Part shown: positions 5,970 to 13,795 of the stretch, piece by piece
How the letters are laid out: each line of letters begins with the position of its first letter
How positions within the stretch are numbered: the stretch's first letter is position 1
NCBI GenBank assembly: GCA_964603185.1
Contig: CAZRUB010000002.1
Location: forward strand, 1 to 29,791
Reading direction: 5' to 3'
DNA from: an uncultured Ruminococcus sp.
GTDB lineage: Bacteria; Bacillota; Clostridia; CAKSNL01; HGM11501
Length of the DNA stretch: 29,791 nucleotides
Made by a program: the position numbers and the translations under genes
The notes under the pieces: model-generated
Seen by the model: the letters and a program-made list of their open reading frames with translations, nothing else
Databases searched by the model: none
What the model was told of the DNA's origin: nothing

Positions 5970-6054
5970 TGCATAAATTATGCACTTTTGCAATATTTAT
6001 GCATAAAAATGCATAAATGGAGATAAAATACTTGACAATTGCAGAAATTATGCA
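5970..6054. promoter_or_regulatory. Cluster of ARG-box-like operators (ArgR/AhrC) at the arg promoter
   Basis: TGCATAAAAATGCA at 6000-6013 fits the TGMAT-N4-ATKCA core; related TGCA-N7-TGCA palindromes at 5970-5984, 5989-6003 and 6040-6054. Confidence 0.75.
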
Positions 6055-6060
6055 TATAAT
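6032..6060 (+). promoter_or_regulatory. Consensus sigmaA promoter of argCJBD
   Basis: TTGACA(6032-6037)-17 bp-TATAAT(6055-6060). Confidence 0.9.
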
Positions 6061-6097
6061 TACAATAATAACGAAAATGCGGAAGGGACGATGCCCA

Positions 6098-7024
6098 ATG
6101 ACGAACATTTTTATAGACGGCAGGGCCGGAACAACGGGGCTCAGAATTTACGACAGATTAAAGGAAAGATCGGACATTCGCCTTATCACGCTTTCGGAGG
6201 AGGAGCGCAAGGATTTGAGGGCGCGTAAGGAAGCGATAAATTCGTCCGATGTTACCTTTTTATGCCTCCCTGATGACGCGGCAAGAGAGGCGGTGGCGCT
6301 TTCGGAAAACCCCGAAACCGTTATAATAGATACCTCCACCGCGCACAGAACGGCTGCGGGCTGGGTTTACGGCTTTCCGGAGCTTTCAAAGAAGCATTTC
6401 GAGGGGGTGAAAGCCTCCAAGCGCATTGCCGTTCCCGGATGTCATGCGGGCGGCTTTGTTGCGTTGGTTTATCCGCTTATCGAAGCCGGAATAATAGCGA
6501 GGGATGAGCTTTTGACCTGCTTTTCGCTTACGGGATATTCGGGCGGCGGAAAGAAAATGATTGCCGAATATGAGGCCGAGGGAAGGGACAAAAGGCTTGC
6601 GGCGCCCCGGCAGTATGCCTTGGGACAAGAGCACAAGCACCTTAAAGAAATGCAGGGTATTACGGGGCTTTTGAATGCGCCCGTCTTTTCGCCGGTGGTT
6701 GCACCGTTTTACAGCGGCATGCAGGTGACTGTTCCCGTTTTCGCCGACGGCAAAAAGAAAACGGCACAATATATAAAGGAAGCTTATAAAAACAAATACA
6801 ACGGGCCCGTAGTGTTTTTTGACGAGGCGATGGGCGCCGACGGTTTTATATCCGCGGCGGAGCATACGGGGCTTGACTGTATGAAAATCGGCGTTTTGGG
6901 AAACGAGGAGCGCATTTTGCTTGTTGCGCTCTACGATAATTTGGGAAAAGGCGCGTCGGGAGCGGCAATAGAATGCTTAAACACAGTAACCGGAGCGGCT
7001 CTTACCTACGGGCTTGAAATATAG
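6098..7024 (+). CDS. argC: N-acetyl-gamma-glutamyl-phosphate reductase, short 'type 2' form
   Basis: IFIDGRAGTTGL, FLCLPD, IIDTSTAHRT, YGFPEL, VPGCHAGG, SGYSGGG-like TGYSGGGK, DNLGKGASGAA. Start moved to ATG 6098 because the ORF-track start lies upstream of the promoter. Confidence 0.95.
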   Translation: MTNIFIDGRAGTTGLRIYDRLKERSDIRLITLSEEERKDLRARKEAINSSDVTFLCLPDDAAREAVALSENPETVIIDTSTAHRTAAGWVYGFPELSKKHFEGVKASKRIAVPGCHAGGFVALVYPLIEAGIIARDELLTCFSLTGYSGGGKKMIAEYEAEGRDKRLAAPRQYALGQEHKHLKEMQGITGLLNAPVFSPVVAPFYSGMQVTVPVFADGKKKTAQYIKEAYKNKYNGPVVFFDEAMGADGFISAAEHTGLDCMKIGVLGNEERILLVALYDNLGKGASGAAIECLNTVTGAALTYGLEI

Positions 7025-7037
7025 GAGGATCGGAAGA

Positions 7038-8249
7038 ATGAAAATAATCGAAGGCGGAGTGTGCGCCGCAAAGGGCTTTACGGCGGCGGGCGTTCACTGC
7101 GGAATAAGAAAAAACAAAGACAAGCGCGACCTTGCGCTGATTTTCAGCGAAAAAAGGGCGTCCGCGGCGGCGGTTTACACAAAGAACCTTGTTAAGGGTG
7201 CGCCGCTTCGTTTAACCAGGGAGCATATTGCGGACGGTTATGCTCAGGCGATTATCTGCAACAGCGGAAATGCGAACACCTGCAATTCCAACGGGAGGGA
7301 AATCGCGGCGGAAACCTGCCGTCTTTTGGGCGAGGCGCTTAACATCAACGAAAAGGATGTTGTTGTCGCTTCAACGGGCGTTATCGGGCAGCGGATGTCA
7401 ATCGACCCGATAAAAGAAGGCATTCCCCGCCTTATCGACGAATTGGGCGATAATTCCGAAAAGGCGGCGGAGGGAATCATGACAACGGACACGCGCCTTA
7501 AGGAAATTGCCGTAAGCTTTGAGGCGGACGGTGTGACCTGCCGCATAGGCGGAATCGCAAAGGGCTCCGGAATGATACATCCGGATATGGCAACCATGCT
7601 TGTGTTCATCACAACGGATTGCGCGATCAGCCCCGAGATGCTTAAAAAAGCCCTTTCAAGCGATGTTACGGAAACCTTCAACATGGTAAGCGTTGACGGC
7701 GACACCTCCACGAACGATATGGTAACGGTGCTTGCAAACGGAATGGCCGAAAACAAGGAAATAACCGCCGAGGGTGAGGCGTTTGATGCCTTTATGAAGG
7801 CCTTGAATACCGTAACCGTAAACCTCTGCCGCAGAATTGCGGCCGACGGAGAGGGCGCAACCAAGCTTATCGAATGCCGCGTTTTCGGAGCGGCGGACAA
7901 GCAGACCGCGAAGACTGTTGCGAAAAGCGTTATATGCTCCTCGCTCACCAAGGCGGCGCTTTTCGGCGCGGACGCAAACTGGGGGAGAGTGCTTTGCGCG
8001 ATAGGCTACAGCAAGGCGGAGGTTGATGTTGACAAAATCGACGTAAGCTTCAAATCCGCGGCCGGTGAAATTATGGTTTGCGAAAACGGAGCGGGCGTGG
8101 ATTTTTCCGAGGATGAGGCGAAGAAAATTCTGCTTTGCGACGAAGTGGAGATTGTTATAAGCTTAAAATCCGGAGCGGAAGAAGCCACCGCGTGGGGCTG
8201 CGACCTTACATATGACTACGTTAAAATAAACGGAGATTACAGAACCTGA
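7038..8249 (+). CDS. argJ: Ornithine acetyltransferase / N-acetylglutamate synthase ArgJ
   Basis: NSGNAN, STGVIG, IMTTDT, AKGSGMIHPDMATML, VDGDTSTND, DGEGATK, DANWGR, WGCDLTYDYVKINGDYRT; ATG 7038 after GGAGGA. Confidence 0.97.
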   Translation: MKIIEGGVCAAKGFTAAGVHCGIRKNKDKRDLALIFSEKRASAAAVYTKNLVKGAPLRLTREHIADGYAQAIICNSGNANTCNSNGREIAAETCRLLGEALNINEKDVVVASTGVIGQRMSIDPIKEGIPRLIDELGDNSEKAAEGIMTTDTRLKEIAVSFEADGVTCRIGGIAKGSGMIHPDMATMLVFITTDCAISPEMLKKALSSDVTETFNMVSVDGDTSTNDMVTVLANGMAENKEITAEGEAFDAFMKALNTVTVNLCRRIAADGEGATKLIECRVFGAADKQTAKTVAKSVICSSLTKAALFGADANWGRVLCAIGYSKAEVDVDKIDVSFKSAAGEIMVCENGAGVDFSEDEAKKILLCDEVEIVISLKSGAEEATAWGCDLTYDYVKINGDYRT

Positions 8250-8265
8250 CGGGAGAGAAAAAATA

Positions 8266-9123
8266 ATGGAAATTTCAAATGCGGACCGCGCGTCGATACT
8301 TGTTCACGCGCTGCCTTATATTCAAGATTATACGGGCAAAATTGTTGTTATAAAATACGGCGGAAACGCCATGGTGAACGATTCGCTCAAGGATTCGGTC
8401 ATGCGCGATATAATTCTTCTTCAGCTTATCGGAGTTAAGGTTGTTTTGATTCACGGCGGCGGTCCGGAGATAACGGGAATGCTTGAAAAAATCGGCAAGG
8501 AAAGCAAATTTTCAAACGGCCTTCGCGTAACCGACGAGGAAACGGTTGAGGTTGTTCAGATGGTGCTTGCCGGCAAGGTTAACAAGAATCTTGTTAATTT
8601 GATAGAGCTTAAGGGCGGAAAGGCAATCGGTCTTTCGGGAATCGACGGGCACATGATAACCGCAAAAATGAAGGATAGGGAGCTGGGCTTCGTCGGCTCC
8701 ATTACGGAGGTTAACGTTCAGCCCATAAGGGATGTGCTGGAAAAGGGCTATATCCCGGTTATATCGACCATAGGATGCGACAACGAGGGTAACGTTTACA
8801 ACATAAATGCGGATACCGCGGCGGCCAAAATAGCGGGAGAGCTTGGCGCCGAAAGCCTTATATCCATGACGGATATATGCGGAATACTTAAGGATAAAAA
8901 TGACGAAGCTACGCTTATTCCGGTTATAAAAACAGCCGAGGCACCGGAGCTTATTCGTTCGGGCGTTATTGCCGGCGGAATGCTTCCGAAGGTGGAGTGC
9001 TGCATAAATGCCATAAAATGGGGCGTTAACAGGGTGTTCATCATCGACGGGCGCATTCCCCATTCCATATTGATAGAAATGCTTACAAACGAAGGTATCG
9101 GAACAATGTTTATTGACGGGTGA
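8266..9123 (+). CDS. argB: Acetylglutamate kinase
   Basis: VVIKYGGNAM, IHGGGPEI, GLRVTD, NINADTAA, GGMLPKV, IIDGRIPHS. Confidence 0.97.
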   Translation: MEISNADRASILVHALPYIQDYTGKIVVIKYGGNAMVNDSLKDSVMRDIILLQLIGVKVVLIHGGGPEITGMLEKIGKESKFSNGLRVTDEETVEVVQMVLAGKVNKNLVNLIELKGGKAIGLSGIDGHMITAKMKDRELGFVGSITEVNVQPIRDVLEKGYIPVISTIGCDNEGNVYNINADTAAAKIAGELGAESLISMTDICGILKDKNDEATLIPVIKTAEAPELIRSGVIAGGMLPKVECCINAIKWGVNRVFIIDGRIPHSILIEMLTNEGIGTMFIDG

Positions 9124-9129
9124 TGACTT

Positions 9130-10293
9130 ATGGATATAATTAAAAACGACGGTGAGTTTATTGCTCACACATATTCGCGCTTTCCGCTTGTTTTGAAAAG
9201 GGGTGAGGGCTCGTATCTTTGGGACGAGGACGGGAAAAAATATATCGACATGGCCTCCGGAATTGCGGTAACCGCCTTCGGCCATGCGGATAAGGAATGG
9301 ATAGGCGCGGTAACGGGTCAGCTTTCACGGCTTGCCCACACCTCCAATCTTTATTACAGTGAGCCCTGCGTGCTTTTGGCAAAGGAGCTTTGCGAAAGAA
9401 CCGAAATGGGAAAGGTTTTCTTCTCGAACTCGGGCGCGGAGGCAAACGAATGCGCGATAAAGGCGGCAAGAAAATATTCCGAGGAGAAAAAGGGTTCGGA
9501 ATATTATAACATTATCACACTTGTAAATAGCTTTCACGGCAGAACCGTAACCACGCTTGCGGCAACGGGGCAGGAGGTTTTCCATAAGGATTTCACACCC
9601 CTTACGGACGGCTTTTTGTACGTGGAGGCAGGCAATATCGGCGAGCTTGAAAAAACGGTTAAGGAAAATAAATGCGCGGCGATAATGTTTGAAACGGTTC
9701 AGGGCGAGGGCGGTGTTATGCCGCTTGATAAAGAATACGTTGCCGCAATGGCGGACATAGCGAGAAAAAACGATATTCTCTTGATATCGGATGAGGTGCA
9801 AACCGGAAACGGACGCACCGGTAAGCTTTACGGTTATATGCATTACGGAATCAAGCCCGATATCGTATCCACCGCAAAGGGCTTGGGCGGCGGACTTCCC
9901 ATAGGTGCAACCATTATGAGCGAGGACGTTGCGTCACACCTTGTTGCGGGCAGTCACGGCTCCACCTTCGGCGGAAATCCCGTGTGCGCGGCGGGTGCCT
10001 TAAGCATATTGAAAAGAATTGACGACGAGCTGCTTTCCTCCGTTGCCGCAAAGGGCGAATATGTGAAAAATGCCCTTTCCGGAGAAAAGGGCATTGTGAG
10101 TGTGTCCGGCTTGGGACTTATGATAGGTATAAAGACCGAGCTTTCGGCGGACGAGGTCGTAAAGCGTTGCCGTGAGGAGGGCGTGCTTGTTATAAAGGCA
10201 AAGGATAAGGTGCGCCTTTTGCCGGCGCTTAACATTCCCTTTGACGTTCTTGAAAGAGCGACCGAGGTTATTAAAAAAGCCTGCGCAAATTAG
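9130..10293 (+). CDS. argD: Acetylornithine aminotransferase (class III PLP-dependent)
   Basis: NSGAEANE, SFHGRT, VQGEGG, DEVQTG, TAKGLGGG (PLP lysine), HGSTFGGNP; last gene of the arg operon. Confidence 0.95.
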   Translation: MDIIKNDGEFIAHTYSRFPLVLKRGEGSYLWDEDGKKYIDMASGIAVTAFGHADKEWIGAVTGQLSRLAHTSNLYYSEPCVLLAKELCERTEMGKVFFSNSGAEANECAIKAARKYSEEKKGSEYYNIITLVNSFHGRTVTTLAATGQEVFHKDFTPLTDGFLYVEAGNIGELEKTVKENKCAAIMFETVQGEGGVMPLDKEYVAAMADIARKNDILLISDEVQTGNGRTGKLYGYMHYGIKPDIVSTAKGLGGGLPIGATIMSEDVASHLVAGSHGSTFGGNPVCAAGALSILKRIDDELLSSVAAKGEYVKNALSGEKGIVSVSGLGLMIGIKTELSADEVVKRCREEGVLVIKAKDKVRLLPALNIPFDVLERATEVIKKACAN

Positions 10294-10928
10294 GGTAAAA
10301 GCTCAAAATGCTTGCCCCTGGAATTTATAATTCCGTCGCGGCGCAGCTCGGATATTGCGCGGGCGAGTGAGCTTCGGTCCAAGCAAAGATAGTCTGAGAG
10401 TTCCGCCTGACTTAAATGAAGCTCAAATGAAGAGGAGCCTTTTGAAATTCTTTCGTTTTCAAGAAACGAAAGAATTTTTTCTTTTGCGTTTTTTTCCTTA
10501 AGAAGCGAAAGCCTGAGGTTTTGTCCCGTTGCCTCGGCACAAAGCATCTTGAAAAGATTGGACAAAACGGTAAAATGATAATAGCAGGCCCTTTCGCACG
10601 GCCGCAAAAGCGCGGAATAATCGAAAAACAAAACCGAGCAGTCCGTTCCCGCATAAATTTTCACACTGTGCCCCTGCGGCGGAAGCGAAAAAAGCTCGCC
10701 GAAGGCGTCACCGCTTTTGATTCGTAGCTTTTCGTAAAGCCGCCCGTGCGAATAATATTGAACGGTTGCCCTGCCGTCCGTCAGCGTTCCCACTTTTAAA
10801 ATGCGCTCCGAATCGCAGGAATAAATCTCCTCGCCCTGCATATAGTATTTTTCCTCGCACCCGATACAGGCCTTTAATTTCGCGAGGTCTGAGCGTGTTA
10901 TACCTGAAAATACCGTGATTTTGGACAT
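10290..10928 (-). CDS. Crp/Fnr family transcriptional regulator
   Basis: cNMP-binding-like domain (GDAFGE), CERACYYH motif, and C-terminal HTH LSQAELSDYLCLDRSSLARAISELRRDGII; GGGGGT RBS. Confidence 0.9.
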   Translation of the reverse strand: MSKITVFSGITRSDLAKLKACIGCEEKYYMQGEEIYSCDSERILKVGTLTDGRATVQYYSHGRLYEKLRIKSGDAFGELFSLPPQGHSVKIYAGTDCSVLFFDYSALLRPCERACYYHFTVLSNLFKMLCAEATGQNLRLSLLKEKNAKEKILSFLENERISKGSSSFELHLSQAELSDYLCLDRSSLARAISELRRDGIINSRGKHFELLP

Positions 10929-10936
10929 TTTGCTAC

Positions 10937-10984
10937 CCCCTATATATAGATAAGCTTGAATTCAAAATATACTACATATTGAAT
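10937..10984. promoter_or_regulatory. Tandem NrdR boxes
   Basis: Cores CTATATATAG (10940-10949) and CTACATATTG (10972-10981) match the NrdR core CwAyATaTwG, are 32 bp apart as is typical for the pair, and are adjacent to nrdDG. Confidence 0.78.
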
Positions 10985-11011
10985 TATATCACAAAAATGT
11001 TGCAAATGCAA
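10983..11011 (-). promoter_or_regulatory. sigmaA promoter of the Crp/Fnr gene
   Basis: Minus strand TTGCAT-17 bp-TATAAT with extended -10 (TGaTATAAT). Confidence 0.72.
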
Positions 11012-11018
11012 CATTTTT
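10993..11018. promoter_or_regulatory. Perfect palindromic operator, probable site of the adjacent Crp/Fnr regulator
   Basis: AAAAATGTTGCA-aa-TGCAACATTTTT (12-bp perfect arms; core TGTTGC-N4-GCAACA). Confidence 0.72.
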
Positions 11019-11021
11019 TGT

Positions 11022-11050
11022 TTTACTTATGGTAAAGCGTGTTATATAAT
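11022..11050 (+). promoter_or_regulatory. sigmaA promoter of nrdDG
   Basis: TTTACT(11022-11027)-17 bp-TATAAT(11045-11050). Confidence 0.65.
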
Positions 11051-11092
11051 AATGAAGCACAAAGCAAAGATATTTATAAGGGGAAATAAAAA

Positions 11093-13276
11093 ATGAAAAT
11101 TATCAAAAGAAACGGCTCCGAGGAGGAGTTTGACAGACTGAAAATAAAAAAGGCCATCGAAGGTGCGAATGAGGCAACCTCCGGCAGCCGTGAGCTGACC
11201 GATCGCCAGATCGATTATATCTCGCTCGTTATCGAGGATTATTGCCGTGATATCGGCAGGGCCATGTCGGTCGAGGAGGTGCAGGAGCTTGTCGAAACCC
11301 ACATTATATTGCAGGGGGCACCGGAAACCGCCAAAAGATATATAAGATACAGATTCACAAGAAACCTTGCACGTGTCGCAAATACAACGGATAACCAGAT
11401 TTTAACGCTGATTGAGTGCAACAACGAGGAGGTTAAGCAGGAAAATTCCAACAAAAACCCCACGGTAAATTCCGTTCAGCGCGATTATATGGCCGGAGAG
11501 GTAAGCAAGGACTTGACCAAGAGAATACTTCTTCCCCACGACGTGGTAGAGGCGCACGAAAGCGGCATAATTCATTTTCACGATGCCGATTATTTTGCGC
11601 AGCATATGCACAATTGCGACCTTGTCAACCTTGAGGACATGCTTCAAAACGGAACGGTAATTTCCGGAACGATGATTGAAAAGCCTCACAGCTTTTCAAC
11701 GGCCTGCAACATCGCAACACAGATTATAGCACAGGTTGCCTCCAACCAATACGGCGGGCAGAGCATAAGCTTAACGCATCTCGCTCCCTTTGTTCAAATT
11801 TCCAGAGAGAAAATAAAAAAGCAAGTTCTTTCCGAGGTTGAGAGCTCCGGTGTGGAGGTTTCGGCCGAAAAGGTAGACGCAATCGTCGAGGCAAGACTGC
11901 TTGATGAAATCAAGCGCGGCGTTCAAACAATACAGTATCAGGTCGTAACGCTTTTGACGACAAACGGTCAGGCGCCCTTTGTAACGGTTTTCATGTATCT
12001 TAACGAGGCGAAGGATCCCATTTTGAAGCATGACCTTGCGCTGATAATAGAAGAGGTGTTAAAGCAAAGGCATAAGGGCGTTAAAAACGAGGCGGGAGTT
12101 TATGTGACGCCGGCCTTCCCGAAGCTTATATATGTGCTTGAGGAGGACAATATCTCCGAGGATTCGCCCTATTGGTATCTTACGGAGCTTGCGGCAAAGT
12201 GCACGGCGAAGCGCATGGTTCCGGATTATATTTCCGAAAAAATCATGTTTGAGCTTAAAAAAGACAAAAACGGAAACGGAAATTGCTATCCCTGCATGGG
12301 CTGCAGAAGCTTCCTTACCACCTATGTGGACGAGAACGGAAAACCGAAATATTACGGCCGCTTCAATCAGGGCGTTGTAACGCTCAACCTGGTGGATGTT
12401 GCCTGCACCGCCTGCAAGGAAACGAAAAACGAGGAGCGGTTCTGGGCTGTTTTGGACGAAAGACTGGAGCTTTGCCACAAGGCCTTAAGATGCCGTCACG
12501 AACGGCTGGAGGGCACACTTTCCGATGCCGCTCCCATACTTTGGCAATACGGCGCCATCGCCCGCCTTCCGAAGGGGAAGCCGATAACGGAGCTTTTGCA
12601 CGGCGGATATTCCACCATTTCGCTGGGCTTTGCCGGCCTTTGGGAATGCGTTTATGAGGTTACCGGCAAAAAGCTTACCGAAAAAGAGGGTGAGGAATTC
12701 GGTCTTCGCGTGCTTGAGAAAATGAACGACGCATGCAGGCGCTGGAAGGCGGAGGAAAACATCGATTATTCCATTTACGGAACGCCCCTCGAATCCACAA
12801 CATATAAATTCGCAAAGTGCCTGCAAAAGCGCTTTGGAAAAATTAAGGGCGTAACGGATAAAAACTATATAACAAATTCATATCATGTTCACGTAACCGA
12901 AAAAATAGACGCCTTTGCCAAGCTTGCGTTGGAGGCAAAATTCCAGGCTCTTTCGCCCGGCGGTGCAATAAGCTATGTGGAGGTACCCAACATGCAGGAT
13001 AACATCCCCGCGGTACTGGAGGTTATGAAGTTTATATACAACAACATCATGTACGCGGAGCTTAACACCAAGTCGGATTATTGCCAGGAATGCGGATATG
13101 ACGGCGAAATTCAAATAAAGGAGGAGGACGGCAAGCTTGTGTGGGAGTGCCCGTCCTGCGGAAACCGCGACCAGGCGAAAATGAACGTTGCAAGAAGAAC
13201 CTGCGGCTATATCGGCTCTCAGTTCTGGAATCAGGGCAGAACGCAGGAAATAAAGGAAAGGGTTCTGCATCTTTAA
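11093..13276 (+). CDS. nrdD: Anaerobic (class III) ribonucleoside-triphosphate reductase with N-terminal ATP cone
   Basis: ATP cone KIIKRNG..FD..KIKKAI, IHFHD, HNCDLV, QYGGQS, CMGCRS, GRFNQGVVTLN, YGTPLES, CxxC..CxxC zinc site, glycyl-radical motif RRTCGYIG. Confidence 0.98.
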   Translation: MKIIKRNGSEEEFDRLKIKKAIEGANEATSGSRELTDRQIDYISLVIEDYCRDIGRAMSVEEVQELVETHIILQGAPETAKRYIRYRFTRNLARVANTTDNQILTLIECNNEEVKQENSNKNPTVNSVQRDYMAGEVSKDLTKRILLPHDVVEAHESGIIHFHDADYFAQHMHNCDLVNLEDMLQNGTVISGTMIEKPHSFSTACNIATQIIAQVASNQYGGQSISLTHLAPFVQISREKIKKQVLSEVESSGVEVSAEKVDAIVEARLLDEIKRGVQTIQYQVVTLLTTNGQAPFVTVFMYLNEAKDPILKHDLALIIEEVLKQRHKGVKNEAGVYVTPAFPKLIYVLEEDNISEDSPYWYLTELAAKCTAKRMVPDYISEKIMFELKKDKNGNGNCYPCMGCRSFLTTYVDENGKPKYYGRFNQGVVTLNLVDVACTACKETKNEERFWAVLDERLELCHKALRCRHERLEGTLSDAAPILWQYGAIARLPKGKPITELLHGGYSTISLGFAGLWECVYEVTGKKLTEKEGEEFGLRVLEKMNDACRRWKAEENIDYSIYGTPLESTTYKFAKCLQKRFGKIKGVTDKNYITNSYHVHVTEKIDAFAKLALEAKFQALSPGGAISYVEVPNMQDNIPAVLEVMKFIYNNIMYAELNTKSDYCQECGYDGEIQIKEEDGKLVWECPSCGNRDQAKMNVARRTCGYIGSQFWNQGRTQEIKERVLHL

Positions 13277-13279
13277 TTT

Positions 13280-13795
13280 ATGAACTATTCAGCAATTAAA
13301 ACTCACGATATCGCAAACGGCTTAGGGGTCAGAGTCAGCCTTTTCGTATCGGGCTGCACACATCACTGCGACGGTTGCTTCAACAAGGAAACGTGGAGCT
13401 TTTCGTCGGGCGAAAGGTTCACCGAGGAAACCGAGGAATATATTTTGTCGTGCTTGGCTCCAAGCTATATAAGGGGGCTTACGCTTCTCGGGGGTGAGCC
13501 CATGGAAGCGGAAAATCAGCGTGCGCTTTTACCCTTTATCGAGCGGATGAAGGCGCGCTTCCCGGAAAAGGACATATGGTGCTATTCGGGCTATACCTTG
13601 GAGGAGCTTACCTACGGCAGGGCGCATTGCGAAGTGACGGACAGGCTTTTGGCGCTTTTCGACGTTTTGGTTGACGGCGAGTTCAAAAAGGAGCTTTATA
13701 ATATAGCCCTTAAATTTAAGGGGTTGTCAAATCAGCGCATTATCGATATGAAGGAAACCGAACGGCAGGGAAAAACCGTGCTGCTGACAACCTGA
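13280..13795 (+). CDS. nrdG: Anaerobic ribonucleotide reductase activating enzyme (radical SAM)
   Basis: DIANGLGVRVSLFVSGCTHHCDGCFN (CxxxCxxC), LLGGEP, DVLVDG, SNQRIID. Confidence 0.97.
   Translation: MNYSAIKTHDIANGLGVRVSLFVSGCTHHCDGCFNKETWSFSSGERFTEETEEYILSCLAPSYIRGLTLLGGEPMEAENQRALLPFIERMKARFPEKDIWCYSGYTLEELTYGRAHCEVTDRLLALFDVLVDGEFKKELYNIALKFKGLSNQRIIDMKETERQGKTVLLTT

Follow-up and report, generated by a model that had tools for sequence, protein, structure and literature searches.

A predicted HcpR-like Crp/Fnr regulator with its own palindromic operator at the class III ribonucleotide reductase operon nrdDG in Clostridia

The intergenic region upstream of nrdDG, which encode the class III ribonucleotide reductase (RNR) and its activase, is predicted to contain the operator of a dedicated regulator. 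Based on the analysed window (the whole stretch of DNA, 29,791 nucleotides, to which all positions refer) and on comparison with relatives, we consider it likely that a dimer of an HcpR-like Crp/Fnr protein binds at 10998–11013, represses its own gene, acts on nrdDG, and receives an input from NrdR. Other families have a class II activator layout at nrdD, and in the source genus the regulator probably modulates nrdD, either upwards or downwards. An earlier note on this DNA had proposed a regulator dedicated to nrdDG and binding an operator of its own, and the proposal gained support from a separate clade in the tree, the covariation of protein and operator, the conservation of the pairing and the site, and the finding of no other promoter-located site in genus genomes. 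To our knowledge, NrdR, B12 riboswitches and, in enterobacteria, the global regulator FNR account for all bacterial nrdDG control known so far. In the openly accessible literature, we found no paper that links clostridial nrdD to Crp/Fnr, HcpR, NrdR or NO, which agrees with the claim that the pairing was undescribed for class III RNR in Clostridia.

The regulator encoded divergently from nrdDG

The regulator gene (10290–10928, minus strand) was assigned by a domain match, a structural model and a phylogenetic tree. Its 212-aa product matched HTH_Crp_2 with 38.4 bits (Pfam cut-off 27), and the gene is divergent from nrdD (11093–13276, plus strand), as stated in the earlier note. The product of nrdD is a class III ribonucleoside-triphosphate reductase with an ATP-cone (NRDD, 642 bits, with Gly_radical and ATP-cone in Pfam; PRK09263, 906 bits, in NCBIfam), and nrdG (13280–13795, plus strand) encodes the radical-SAM activase (TIGR02491, 181 bits; Fer4_12, 167 bits). 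The AF2 model of the regulator (pLDDT 92.5) consists of strands at residues 25–103, a helix at 116–143, and an HTH at 174–197. Foldseek searches with this model matched HcpR, Clr, FNR and CRP with E values of 1e-10 to 1e-13. The closest PDB fold was that of Porphyromonas gingivalis HcpR (9day; TM 0.72, E 4e-13), a haem-binding NO sensor whose target is hcp and which shares only 19% identity with the regulator. With its beta-roll sensor domain, long dimerisation helix and C-terminal winged HTH, the regulator belongs to the Crp/Fnr superfamily.

Two well-known members of this superfamily were considered and rejected. The cNMP_binding domain scored 21.3 bits, below its Pfam cut-off of 27.5, and the regulator has no Arg-Ser/Thr phosphate-binding pair, the stretch presumed to align with this pair reading PPQGHSVKIYA, with neither RS nor RT; both results speak against a cAMP-binding CRP. 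In FNR proper, an N-terminal Cys cluster together with C122 holds a [4Fe-4S] cluster. The N-terminal C-x2-C-x5-C of FNR is absent from the regulator sequence, the Fnr model NF008365, whose cut-off is 228 bits, aligned with the C-terminal half of the regulator alone and reached 21.6 bits, and the operator, TGTTG-N6-CAACA, differs from the TTGAT-N4-ATCAA box.

Both peptide motifs pointed out in the earlier note, CERACYYH and DRSSLAR, are present. The latter, read from the sequence as D184-R185-S186-S187-L188-A189-R190 (codons at 10359–10379, minus strand), forms the recognition helix, in which R185, S186 and R190 correspond to R180, E181 and R185 of CRP. Across 74 sequences from both clades described below, R185 is invariant and S186 is at least 90% conserved.

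The palindrome in the intergenic region

The 26-bp palindrome at 10993–11018, AAAAATGTTGCA-AA-TGCAACATTTTT, is perfect, with 12-nt arms and a 2-nt spacer, just as it was first read. Its conserved 16-bp core, TGTTGCAAATGCAACA (10998–11013; centre 11005.5), takes the form TGTTGCA-N2-TGCAACA between the regulator gene and nrdDG, and its conservation and its covariation with residue 190 suggest that it serves as the operator of the adjoining regulator. In each half-site, Arg185 is predicted to recognise the G at position 2, and Arg190 the C:G pair at position 6.

Searching the window for ATGTTGCANNTGCAACAT with up to 3 mismatches gave 1 occurrence, against 0.10 expected from shuffles. The genome scan for the palindrome that the earlier note had called for revealed a single perfect copy of TGTTGCANNTGCAACA across the 1.55-Mb assembly; with 2 mismatches, 9 matches were obtained, no more than the 9 of the reversed-pattern control, and a wider regulon in the assembly was thus not detected. 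No further promoter-located sites were found in the genus genomes, where the extra perfect sites fall within coding sequences or a terminator. These results suggest that the regulon is local.

It is exceedingly improbable that the palindrome represents an RNA hairpin, i.e., an intrinsic terminator or attenuator, and no protein-binding DNA site. A pattern scan recognised it as terminator-like on the plus strand (11 pairs, 3 of them G-C, and a T-rich tail, against 0.1 expected), and in one genome of the genus, G002, a genuine terminator that separates convergent genes contains the same core. However, the palindrome in the window is flanked by two divergent promoters, so nothing upstream is there to be terminated. 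The core is invariant in the relatives, with no compensatory changes, whereas some of them, such as loci L005 and L011, have lost the A/T arms and T tail. An intrinsic terminator was rejected on these grounds despite the fit to the pattern, and a permissive Rfam scan of 10800–11200, which matched no family, led us to reject a riboswitch or leader RNA.

Conservation and relationship to HcpR2

A DNA-binding site for the adjoining regulator accords with the conservation of the locus. The core TGTTGCAWWTGCAACA is kept in 10/10 relatives of the genus that have the regulator, and also at the nrdD-linked loci of six families beyond the source family. The conservation of the Crp-nrdD pairing, named as a test in the earlier note, was thereby confirmed. 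All ten genus loci are divergent pairs, with regulator identities of 35–57% versus 88–95% for NrdD. A peptide-pattern search returned one locus from the genome contigs, and the protein database yielded 10 close relatives.

The tree contrasted the clade of the regulator, with 32 rows, with 69 mostly frdX/hcp-linked rows, the neighbouring genes being identified by Pfam. The regulator, which within its clade sits on the long branch of the source genus, was placed as sister to clostridial HcpR2 (UFBoot 100/SH-aLRT 99). Divergent orientation from nrdD was found for 28 of the 32 clade members, across 7 GTDB families of Clostridia, and the remaining four adjoin a flavodiiron protein, a desulfoferrodoxin or an unidentified gene. 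The genomes of these four members have no perfect site at nrdD, and of their extra perfect sites, two fall within coding sequence, one belongs to a CRISPR spacer, and one is an intergenic site of unidentified nature. A change of the neighbouring target of the clade, to nrdDG instead of frdX-hcp, would be the best explanation.

Rodionov et al. (2005) described GTAAC-N4-GTTAC as the HcpR site of most Clostridia and nTGTTGnAnnTnCAACAn as that of Clostridium thermocellum, in which the HcpR2 site (profile 5) lies between hcpR and frdX-hcp and the protein has Ser at CRP position 181 (PMC1274295). The site TGTCGC-N4-GCGACA, named in the earlier note for clostridial HcpR, is not the one published. The palindrome does not fit the commoner profile; its true match is nTGTTGnAnnTnCAACAn of profile 5, and Ser186 stands at CRP position 181. 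The regulator thus resembles C. thermocellum HcpR2 in its Crp/Fnr fold, in this Ser, and in a TGTTG-N6-CAACA site between divergent genes. It further resembles clostridial HcpR2 in the C...C-x3-C-x2-H motif and, in families of the nrdD clade other than its own, in a class II position of −41.5 at the target promoter. On the other side, it differs from clostridial HcpR2 in its separate clade and in its target, nrdDG in place of frdX-hcp. The nrdD-linked operator overlaps the regulator's own −35, while that of HcpR2 is located about 21 nt before its own start codon, and NrdR boxes in the regulator leader and a site at −51.5 in the source genus are further differences. An assignment as HcpR2 by context was rejected, since the neighbour is nrdDG and the tree places the protein with the sister clade, outside the frdX/hcp-linked rows. 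The assembly, which is 77% complete, yielded no prismane gene. Among clostridial regulators, HcpR of Clostridioides difficile has been tested (PMC12915319).

Promoter geometry and predicted mode of action

The best sigma-70-like match of the region (10/12) is the nrdD promoter, PnrdD, TTTACT-17-TATAAT (11022–11050, plus strand), with its −35 at 11022–11027 and its −10 at 11045–11050. The palindrome ends 3 bp ahead of this −35, as the earlier note had it, and in all genus loci both hexamers keep a fixed distance from it. On the minus strand, the regulator gene has a perfect extended −10, TGATATAAT (10983–10991), whose spacing is conserved in relatives. The −35-like hexamer TTGCAT (11011–11006) lies inside the palindrome, 17 bp from this extended −10, a spacing also kept in relatives; a consensus scan gave TTGTGA-17-TATATT (10994–10966) instead. 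The earlier claim that the palindrome covers the regulator's own −35 stands as to position and to the 17-bp pairing with the extended −10, whereas the hexamer itself matches at 3/6 bases.

Nearly all nrdD-linked loci have the own-side −10 at +17.5 relative to the centre of the palindrome, which puts the centre at about −29.5 of the regulator's own promoter and suggests autorepression. Since the operator overlaps the −35 and spacer of this promoter, binding should repress transcription of the regulator gene, and the comparative geometry makes the autorepression proposed earlier probable. The nrdD side is more variable. On this side, the −10 is +29.5 from the palindrome centre in families f10, f16 and f62, and +39.5/40.5 from it in the source genus. 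The centre falls at −41.5 of PnrdD in the three families and at about −42.5 in f15, and in all four PnrdD beside the palindrome has no −35. A centre at −41.5 next to such a promoter would correspond to the class II activator layout, as for HcpR2 at frdX-hcp. In all loci of the source genus, the centre is at about −51.5/−52.5 and the −35, TTTACW, is conserved; the shift goes back to a spacer that is longer by 10 bp and to a true −35 (TTTACT). We know of no productive position at −51.5 for a Crp-type activator from the E. coli CRP spacing studies. Activation of nrdD here may be weak or absent because both boxes are good, and the regulator probably modulates a PnrdD that is able to fire by itself. 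The earlier notion of activation from just upstream of the −35 consequently suits the class II geometry of the other families and is doubtful in the genus.

This geometry could also mean that the palindrome in the genus is only autoregulatory, with a self-sufficient PnrdD unaffected or mildly repressed through the UP-element zone (−64 to −39). Such a reading, which we regard as rather unlikely, would suit the centre and the conserved −35 in all genus loci, the long branch of the regulator, and the loss of sensor residues in part of the genus; moreover, a strict need for an activator would be risky with nrdDG as the sole RNR found. Yet palindrome and PnrdD keep a fixed distance throughout the genus, −51.5 and the −41.5 of the other families differ by exactly one helical turn, and the divergent nrdD linkage has been retained across 7 families. 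The fixed distance together with the one-turn shift suggests that the helix face still matters.

NrdR boxes in the regulator leader

The intergenic region that carries the palindrome also contains two canonical NrdR boxes, which cover the regulator leader. In the NrdR consensus, the conserved positions are C4, A6, A8, T9, T11 and G13 (PMC13584703), and an NrdR site was defined here as two 16-bp boxes with a 15–16-bp linker in a genome with nrdR. Box 1, CCCCTATATATAGATA (10937–10952), overlaps the ribosome-binding site of the regulator, and box 2, ATACTACATATTGAAT (10969–10984), spans two bases of the regulator's −10 and the point at which its transcript is predicted to start. With 6/6 conserved positions in each box, a 16-bp linker, and nrdR present (G000:C231; TIGR00244, 188 bits), 10937–10984 has all features of a predicted NrdR binding site, and it is the sole such pair in the assembly. 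All genus loci and family f62 share the +21/+53 placement of the boxes, and representatives of two families lacking the boxes also lack nrdR. Given the position of the tandem site over the start and leader of the transcript, NrdR loaded with dATP would be expected to silence the regulator gene, which may in turn lower nrdDG expression, either via the regulator or directly.

According to those passages of PMC4009431 that cite Boston and Atlung (2003) and Roca (2008), nrdDG of E. coli is under FNR and NrdR. The locus studied here is similar in the predicted combination of a Crp/Fnr protein and NrdR at a class III RNR promoter. In contrast to the global E. coli FNR, with its N-terminal Cys cluster and its own box, the regulator here is local and has another operator, and its NrdR boxes lie on the regulator promoter, while those of the E. 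coli system lie on PnrdD.

The candidate sensor and the target enzyme

The candidate cofactor-binding motif, recognised by its conservation and its position in the model, comprises C111-E-R-A-C115-Y-Y-H118 (codons at 10575–10598, minus strand) and C21 (10866–10868, minus strand). C21, C111, C115 and H118 are each at least 90% conserved in the 74 sequences of both clades. In the model, the motif loop (109–115) lies between helix B and the dimerisation helix, which begins at 116, and pLDDT dips to 80 in this segment. The four residues would thus be located at the junction of sensor domain and dimerisation helix, and they probably bind a cofactor that responds to redox state or NO, such as an Fe-S cluster or another metal centre. 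The conserved CxxxCxxH noted earlier holds true, but the motif also includes C21 and has been lost in part of the genus: all four residues are missing in two species (G003 and G005) and C21 in four more. The operator is retained in all six, so the sensing function is not essential to the module. A precedent for Fe-S sensing in an HcpR-type Crp/Fnr protein is Desulfovibrio desulfuricans HcpR2, an Fe-S protein for which loss of DNA binding upon NO damage has been proposed (PMC5701242). It differs in lineage, in Cys arrangement, and in its proposed role as a repressor of hcp.

As for the target, no match to class I/II RNR (PF02867) was found in 12/12 genus genomes or in any of the 28 carriers of the nrdD-linked module, which leaves class III RNR as the only dNTP route found in the genus and in the module-carrying genomes of the survey. 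Little weight was given to the link between this RNR content and the module, since PF02867 was also absent from 58% of the sampled Clostridia and from whole families without the module. In the genus, the circuit would control the sole dNTP source of the cell. Both the glycyl radical of class III RNR and the Fe-S cluster of its activase are destroyed by O2 and NO.

Taking these points together, we tentatively propose, at somewhat less than even confidence, that a clade of HcpR-like Cys3-His redox or NO sensors directly activates the sole, and hence essential, class III RNR of many gut Clostridia, and that an NrdR cascade blocks the promoter of the activator and not that of the RNR. If true, dNTP supply would integrate nucleotide status with nitrosative and oxidative stress in one 90-bp control region. 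A private nrdDG sensor from a family of nitrosative-stress regulators would explain how dNTP synthesis is coupled to inflammation-type stress in strict gut anaerobes, and nrdDG as a target would extend the HcpR family past detoxification genes. NrdR acting on the activator gene would be a testable departure from its usual action on the RNR promoter.

Covariation of residue 190 and operator position 6

At operator position 6, C accompanies Arg190 in 93/94 half-sites and T accompanies Asn in 27/28, while Ala never occurs with C (48/48). In a test of independent pairs, about 6 switches were counted on the best tree, 2 of them on well-supported branches, and all were concordant; the covariation falls short of significance because such pairs are too few. 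Rex sites are of the TTGTTAA-N4-TTAACAA type. TGTTGC-N4-GCAACA agrees with Rex-type half-sites at 4/6 bases, which would allow another factor, Rex or an NsrR/Rrf2 protein, to bind the palindrome, the adjoining Crp/Fnr gene being incidental. This is highly improbable, because the adjacent regulator and the site covary (residue 190 and operator position 6), the motif is always directly beside a gene of the regulator family, and a global regulator would have many sites, whereas the assembly has one. Recognition by the adjoining regulator, if true, would imply a one-residue/one-base code in the family, namely Arg with C, Asn with T, and Ala with A, G or T, and the covariation offers a ready mutational test of DNA recognition by Crp/Fnr proteins. 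In the genomes with both paralogues, the two operators differ at position 6.

The nrdDG locus and its palindrome

Re-reading of the sequence showed that the earlier note had accurately described the palindrome, the divergent genes, the protein motifs and the nrdD promoter. The palindrome, AAAAATGTTGCA-AA-TGCAACATTTTT (positions 10993–11018), has perfect 12-nt arms and lies between a Crp/Fnr-family ORF of 212 aa (10290–10928, minus strand; HTH_Crp_2 over threshold, cNMP_binding under threshold), referred to here as the regulator, and, on its right, nrdD (727 aa; ATP-cone, NRDD and glycyl-radical domains) with nrdG (171 aa). The stretches CERACYYH and DRSSLAR were both found in the regulator, and a consensus scan placed the nrdD promoter TTTACT-17-TATAAT at 11022–11050. 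With up to three mismatches allowed, an 18-nt version of the palindrome has a single occurrence in the window, where 0.10 would be expected, and the 16-nt core TGTTGCANNTGCAACA has exactly one copy in the whole assembly (1.55 Mb, 77% complete). With two mismatches allowed, the core gave nine matches in the assembly and the reversed control pattern also gave nine, that is, no excess. To the left of the regulator, four tandem plus-strand ORFs of 335, 411, 285 and 387 aa (6017–10293) end 3 nt inside its stop codon. They resemble an arginine cluster of the argCJBD type; the last ORF, the only one checked, encodes a class III aminotransferase (Pfam Aminotran_3, 342 bits).

When 14 species genomes from the family and order were searched at the protein level, the regulator turned up in 10 of the 11 other genomes of the genus, and it was divergent from nrdD at every genus locus having enough flank. 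The sequence TGTTGCAWWTGCAACA was kept in all the genus intergenic regions despite the drift of the regulator, whose identity among these relatives goes down to 35–57% (88–95% for NrdD). The closest species have one perfect operator site each, and the extra perfect sites in larger genomes of the genus were located in coding DNA or in a terminator between convergent genes, none of them at a promoter. The palindrome was also flagged by a pattern scan as a possible RNA hairpin or terminator; this reading was rejected, since the palindrome sits between divergent promoters and related genomes keep the core sequence without compensatory change while losing the arms and the T tail. Rfam gave no match at the palindrome region. 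As a separate observation, AAAAAACCCTGTTGCATATGCAACAGGGTTTTTT between convergent ORFs of a genus genome (locus L126, G002:C278, around 1490–1525) is an ordinary intrinsic terminator containing the operator core, a warning for motif scans.

Relationship to the HcpR2 family

Homologues with 22–34% identity to the regulator were found in about half of 399 evenly sampled Clostridia genomes, and about 100 best loci were fetched. Clustering of the neighbouring ORFs, with large clusters named by Pfam, gave Prismane (hcp), a 4Fe-4S dicluster protein of about 235 aa (frdX), flavodiiron protein, desulfoferrodoxin and NrdD, and frdX(-hcp) was the divergent partner of most homologues. Regulators in this arrangement were named HcpR2 by Rodionov et al. 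(2005; PMC1274295), whose Table S1 gives the profile nTGTTGnAnnTnCAACAn between hcpR and frdX-hcp for Clostridium thermocellum only, and whose text places Ser at CRP position 181 in the HcpR of that species. Ser at CRP 181 and the operator type are common to this HcpR2 and the window protein (R185-S186...R190). The HcpR lead of the earlier note held, but the motif it gave for clostridial regulators, TGTCGC-N4-GCGACA, is not the one in PMC1274295 for Clostridia. A structure model built from a 74-sequence alignment (pLDDT 92.5) had P. gingivalis HcpR (9day) as its best PDB match (TM 0.72, 19% identity), with Clr, FNR and CRP ranking below. The nearest solved proteins by sequence were Lmo0753 and FixK2 (E 1e-7 to 1e-8), and the window protein scored far under the cut-offs of curated Fnr, FnrL and FixK models.

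In a maximum-likelihood tree of 101 rows (LG+C20, careful search), a branch with UFBoot 100 and SH-aLRT 99 separated all 28 nrdD-linked regulators from the frdX/hcp-linked rows; the rows of the window's genus formed a long-branched group of 10 (support 100/100). Four regulators not linked to nrdD joined the 28. Two of them are near a flavodiiron protein gene (one directly divergent, one with a small ORF between), the third adjoins a desulfoferrodoxin gene, and the neighbour of the fourth has no assigned identity. The 28 span seven GTDB families (handles f1, the window's own, f10, f15, f16, f48, f62 and f81), in a sample biased by the choice of loci as best matches to the window protein, and the nrdD-linked arrangement occurs in at least 18 of about 386 sampled genomes outside f1. 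Both paralogues coexist in several genomes, namely four of the window's genus and several of f10. Genome G233 carries a clade member whose upstream neighbour is a flavodiiron protein gene; in its locus L141 (G233:C1:94322-97335, around 1490–1530), the core TGTTGCATTTGCAACA lies inside a CRISPR spacer of an array with the repeat GTCGCATCCCGCGAGGGATGCGTGGATTGAAAT.

Covariation of the regulator with its predicted operator

A TGTTG-N6-CAACA site is located directly upstream of nearly all members of the nrdD-linked and HcpR2 clades. The sixth base of the operator can be predicted from the residue that aligns with position 190 of the window protein (CRP R185). Arg190 is paired with C6 in 93 of 94 half-sites, Asn with T6 in 27 of 28 and Lys with T6 in all six; the 48 half-sites that go with Ala all have A, T or G and never C. 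All nrdD-linked proteins have Arg at this position and GTTGCA in the operator; in genomes with both paralogues, Ala or Asn takes its place in the HcpR2 copy, whose operator reads GTTGAA, GTTGTT or GTTGGA. Arg reading guanine and Asn reading adenine would be chemically ordinary recognition. About six Arg switches and seven C6 switches were counted on the tree, all concordant; only two are on well-supported branches, so that a formal independent-contrast test of the covariation is underpowered. Binding of the palindrome by a different, global factor (Rex or NsrR-like) was rejected, since the site covaries with the regulator, occurs once per genome and always adjoins the regulator gene. These features point to the palindrome as the operator of the regulator, which, like all our functional statements on the regulator, the operator and NrdR, we infer from sequence.

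Promoter architecture

The distances given here run from the centre of the palindrome to the position at which a −10-like hexamer starts. On the regulator side, TATAAT, TAAAAT or TATTAT begins at +17.5 in nearly all nrdD-linked loci, and the −10 of the window's regulator, TGATATAAT (10991–10983, minus strand), has the same distance. The palindrome, centred near −29.5, thereby overlies the −35 and spacer of the promoter from which the regulator is transcribed, which would be a repressor position. HcpR2 genes differ in having the site about 21 nt before the start codon.

At most frdX/hcp promoters and at the nrdD promoters of f10, f16 and f62, a −10 at +29.5 puts the centre at −41.5 with no −35 box, and the centre is at about −42.5 in f15. 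The f48 loci (L094, L109 and L112) have two separate TGTTGC-N4-GCAACA palindromes each, one 50–64 nt before the regulator start codon and the second about 21–22 nt upstream of the nrdD −10, close to −41.5. The −41.5 layout corresponds to the classical class II activator arrangement, and activation of nrdD by the regulator is a well-supported prediction for the clade in general, the window's genus apart. In that genus, the nrdD −10 begins at +39.5 or +40.5, which moves the centre to −51.5; the gap between palindrome and −10 is occupied by a conserved −35, TTTAC(T/A). From CRP spacing studies, −51.5 is not known as a productive activator position, which is why the genus is set apart. The extra length equals one helical turn, which would keep the protein on the same face of the DNA. 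The main rival for the genus, that nrdD is not activated from this site, is possible but less likely than not.

NrdR boxes

The regulator's leader is also covered by NrdR box 1, CCCCTATATATAGATA (10937–10952), which overlaps the ribosome-binding site of the regulator, and NrdR box 2, ATACTACATATTGAAT (10969–10984), which shares two bases with the regulator's −10 and covers its predicted start. The boxes are conserved blocks in the genus intergenic alignments, are separated by a 16-bp linker, and both satisfy all six positions of the NrdR-box consensus (C4, A6, A8, T9, T11 and G13; linker 15–16 bp; PMC13584703). The pair is unique in the assembly, where an nrdR gene is present, and is situated at about −73 to −120 relative to the nrdD promoter. 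At every genus locus and in f62, the boxes start at +21 and +53 from the palindrome centre. The f16 and f48 loci have no boxes, and nrdR was also not found in the representatives of these families; for f48, this applies to genome G206 and to box pairs in L094, L109 and L112. In f15, NrdR-like boxes are on the nrdD side instead: those of L027 have 43-bp spacing (27-bp linker), and one overlaps the nrdD-proximal palindrome half, so that NrdR and the regulator might compete there. The f15 loci L026 and L029 gave no boxes passing the box filter.

Ribonucleotide reductase content and known regulation of nrdDG

No class I/II large subunit (PF02867) was detected in the 12 genus genomes, six of them at least 90% complete, which apparently leaves NrdDG as the sole RNR of the genus. 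PF02867 was likewise not found in the 28 carriers of the nrdD-linked regulator. As the domain occurs in 169 of the 399 Clostridia and many families without the module lack it too, this absence is context and not a specific association. The regulator is the best Crp-type match of its own assembly, and no hcp was found in this 77%-complete assembly.

Among the papers that could be searched, regulation of nrdDG was limited to FNR plus NrdR in E. coli (PMC4009431) and B12 elements in delta-proteobacteria, and frdX-hcp was the only direct HcpR target in C. difficile (PMC12915319). Literature searches for nrdD with Crp/Fnr, HcpR, NrdR or NO in Clostridia returned nothing relevant. The regulator would represent a new branch of the HcpR2 family that has switched targets and is itself embedded in NrdR control.

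Candidate sensor motif

Conservation is 90% or higher at each of C21, C111, C115 and H118 among the 74 aligned sequences from both clades. In the structure model, helix A ends at C21, the loop after helix B contains C111 and C115, and the dimerisation helix starts with H118, where confidence dips to about 80. Judged from the HMMER register, this junction would lie approximately where FNR has its cluster. HcpR-type proteins of P. gingivalis and B. thetaiotaomicron sense NO through haem, and D. desulfuricans HcpR2 is proposed to do so through an Fe-S cluster (PMC5701242). The Cys3-His site would be compatible with an Fe-S or other metal centre. Four species of the genus (G001, G002, G004 and G007) lack C21 only. 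In two others, G003 and G005 (loci L015 and L016), all four positions are replaced, by N, W, S/N and Q, and the regulator loci still have the palindrome, the NrdR boxes and the −51.5 spacing.
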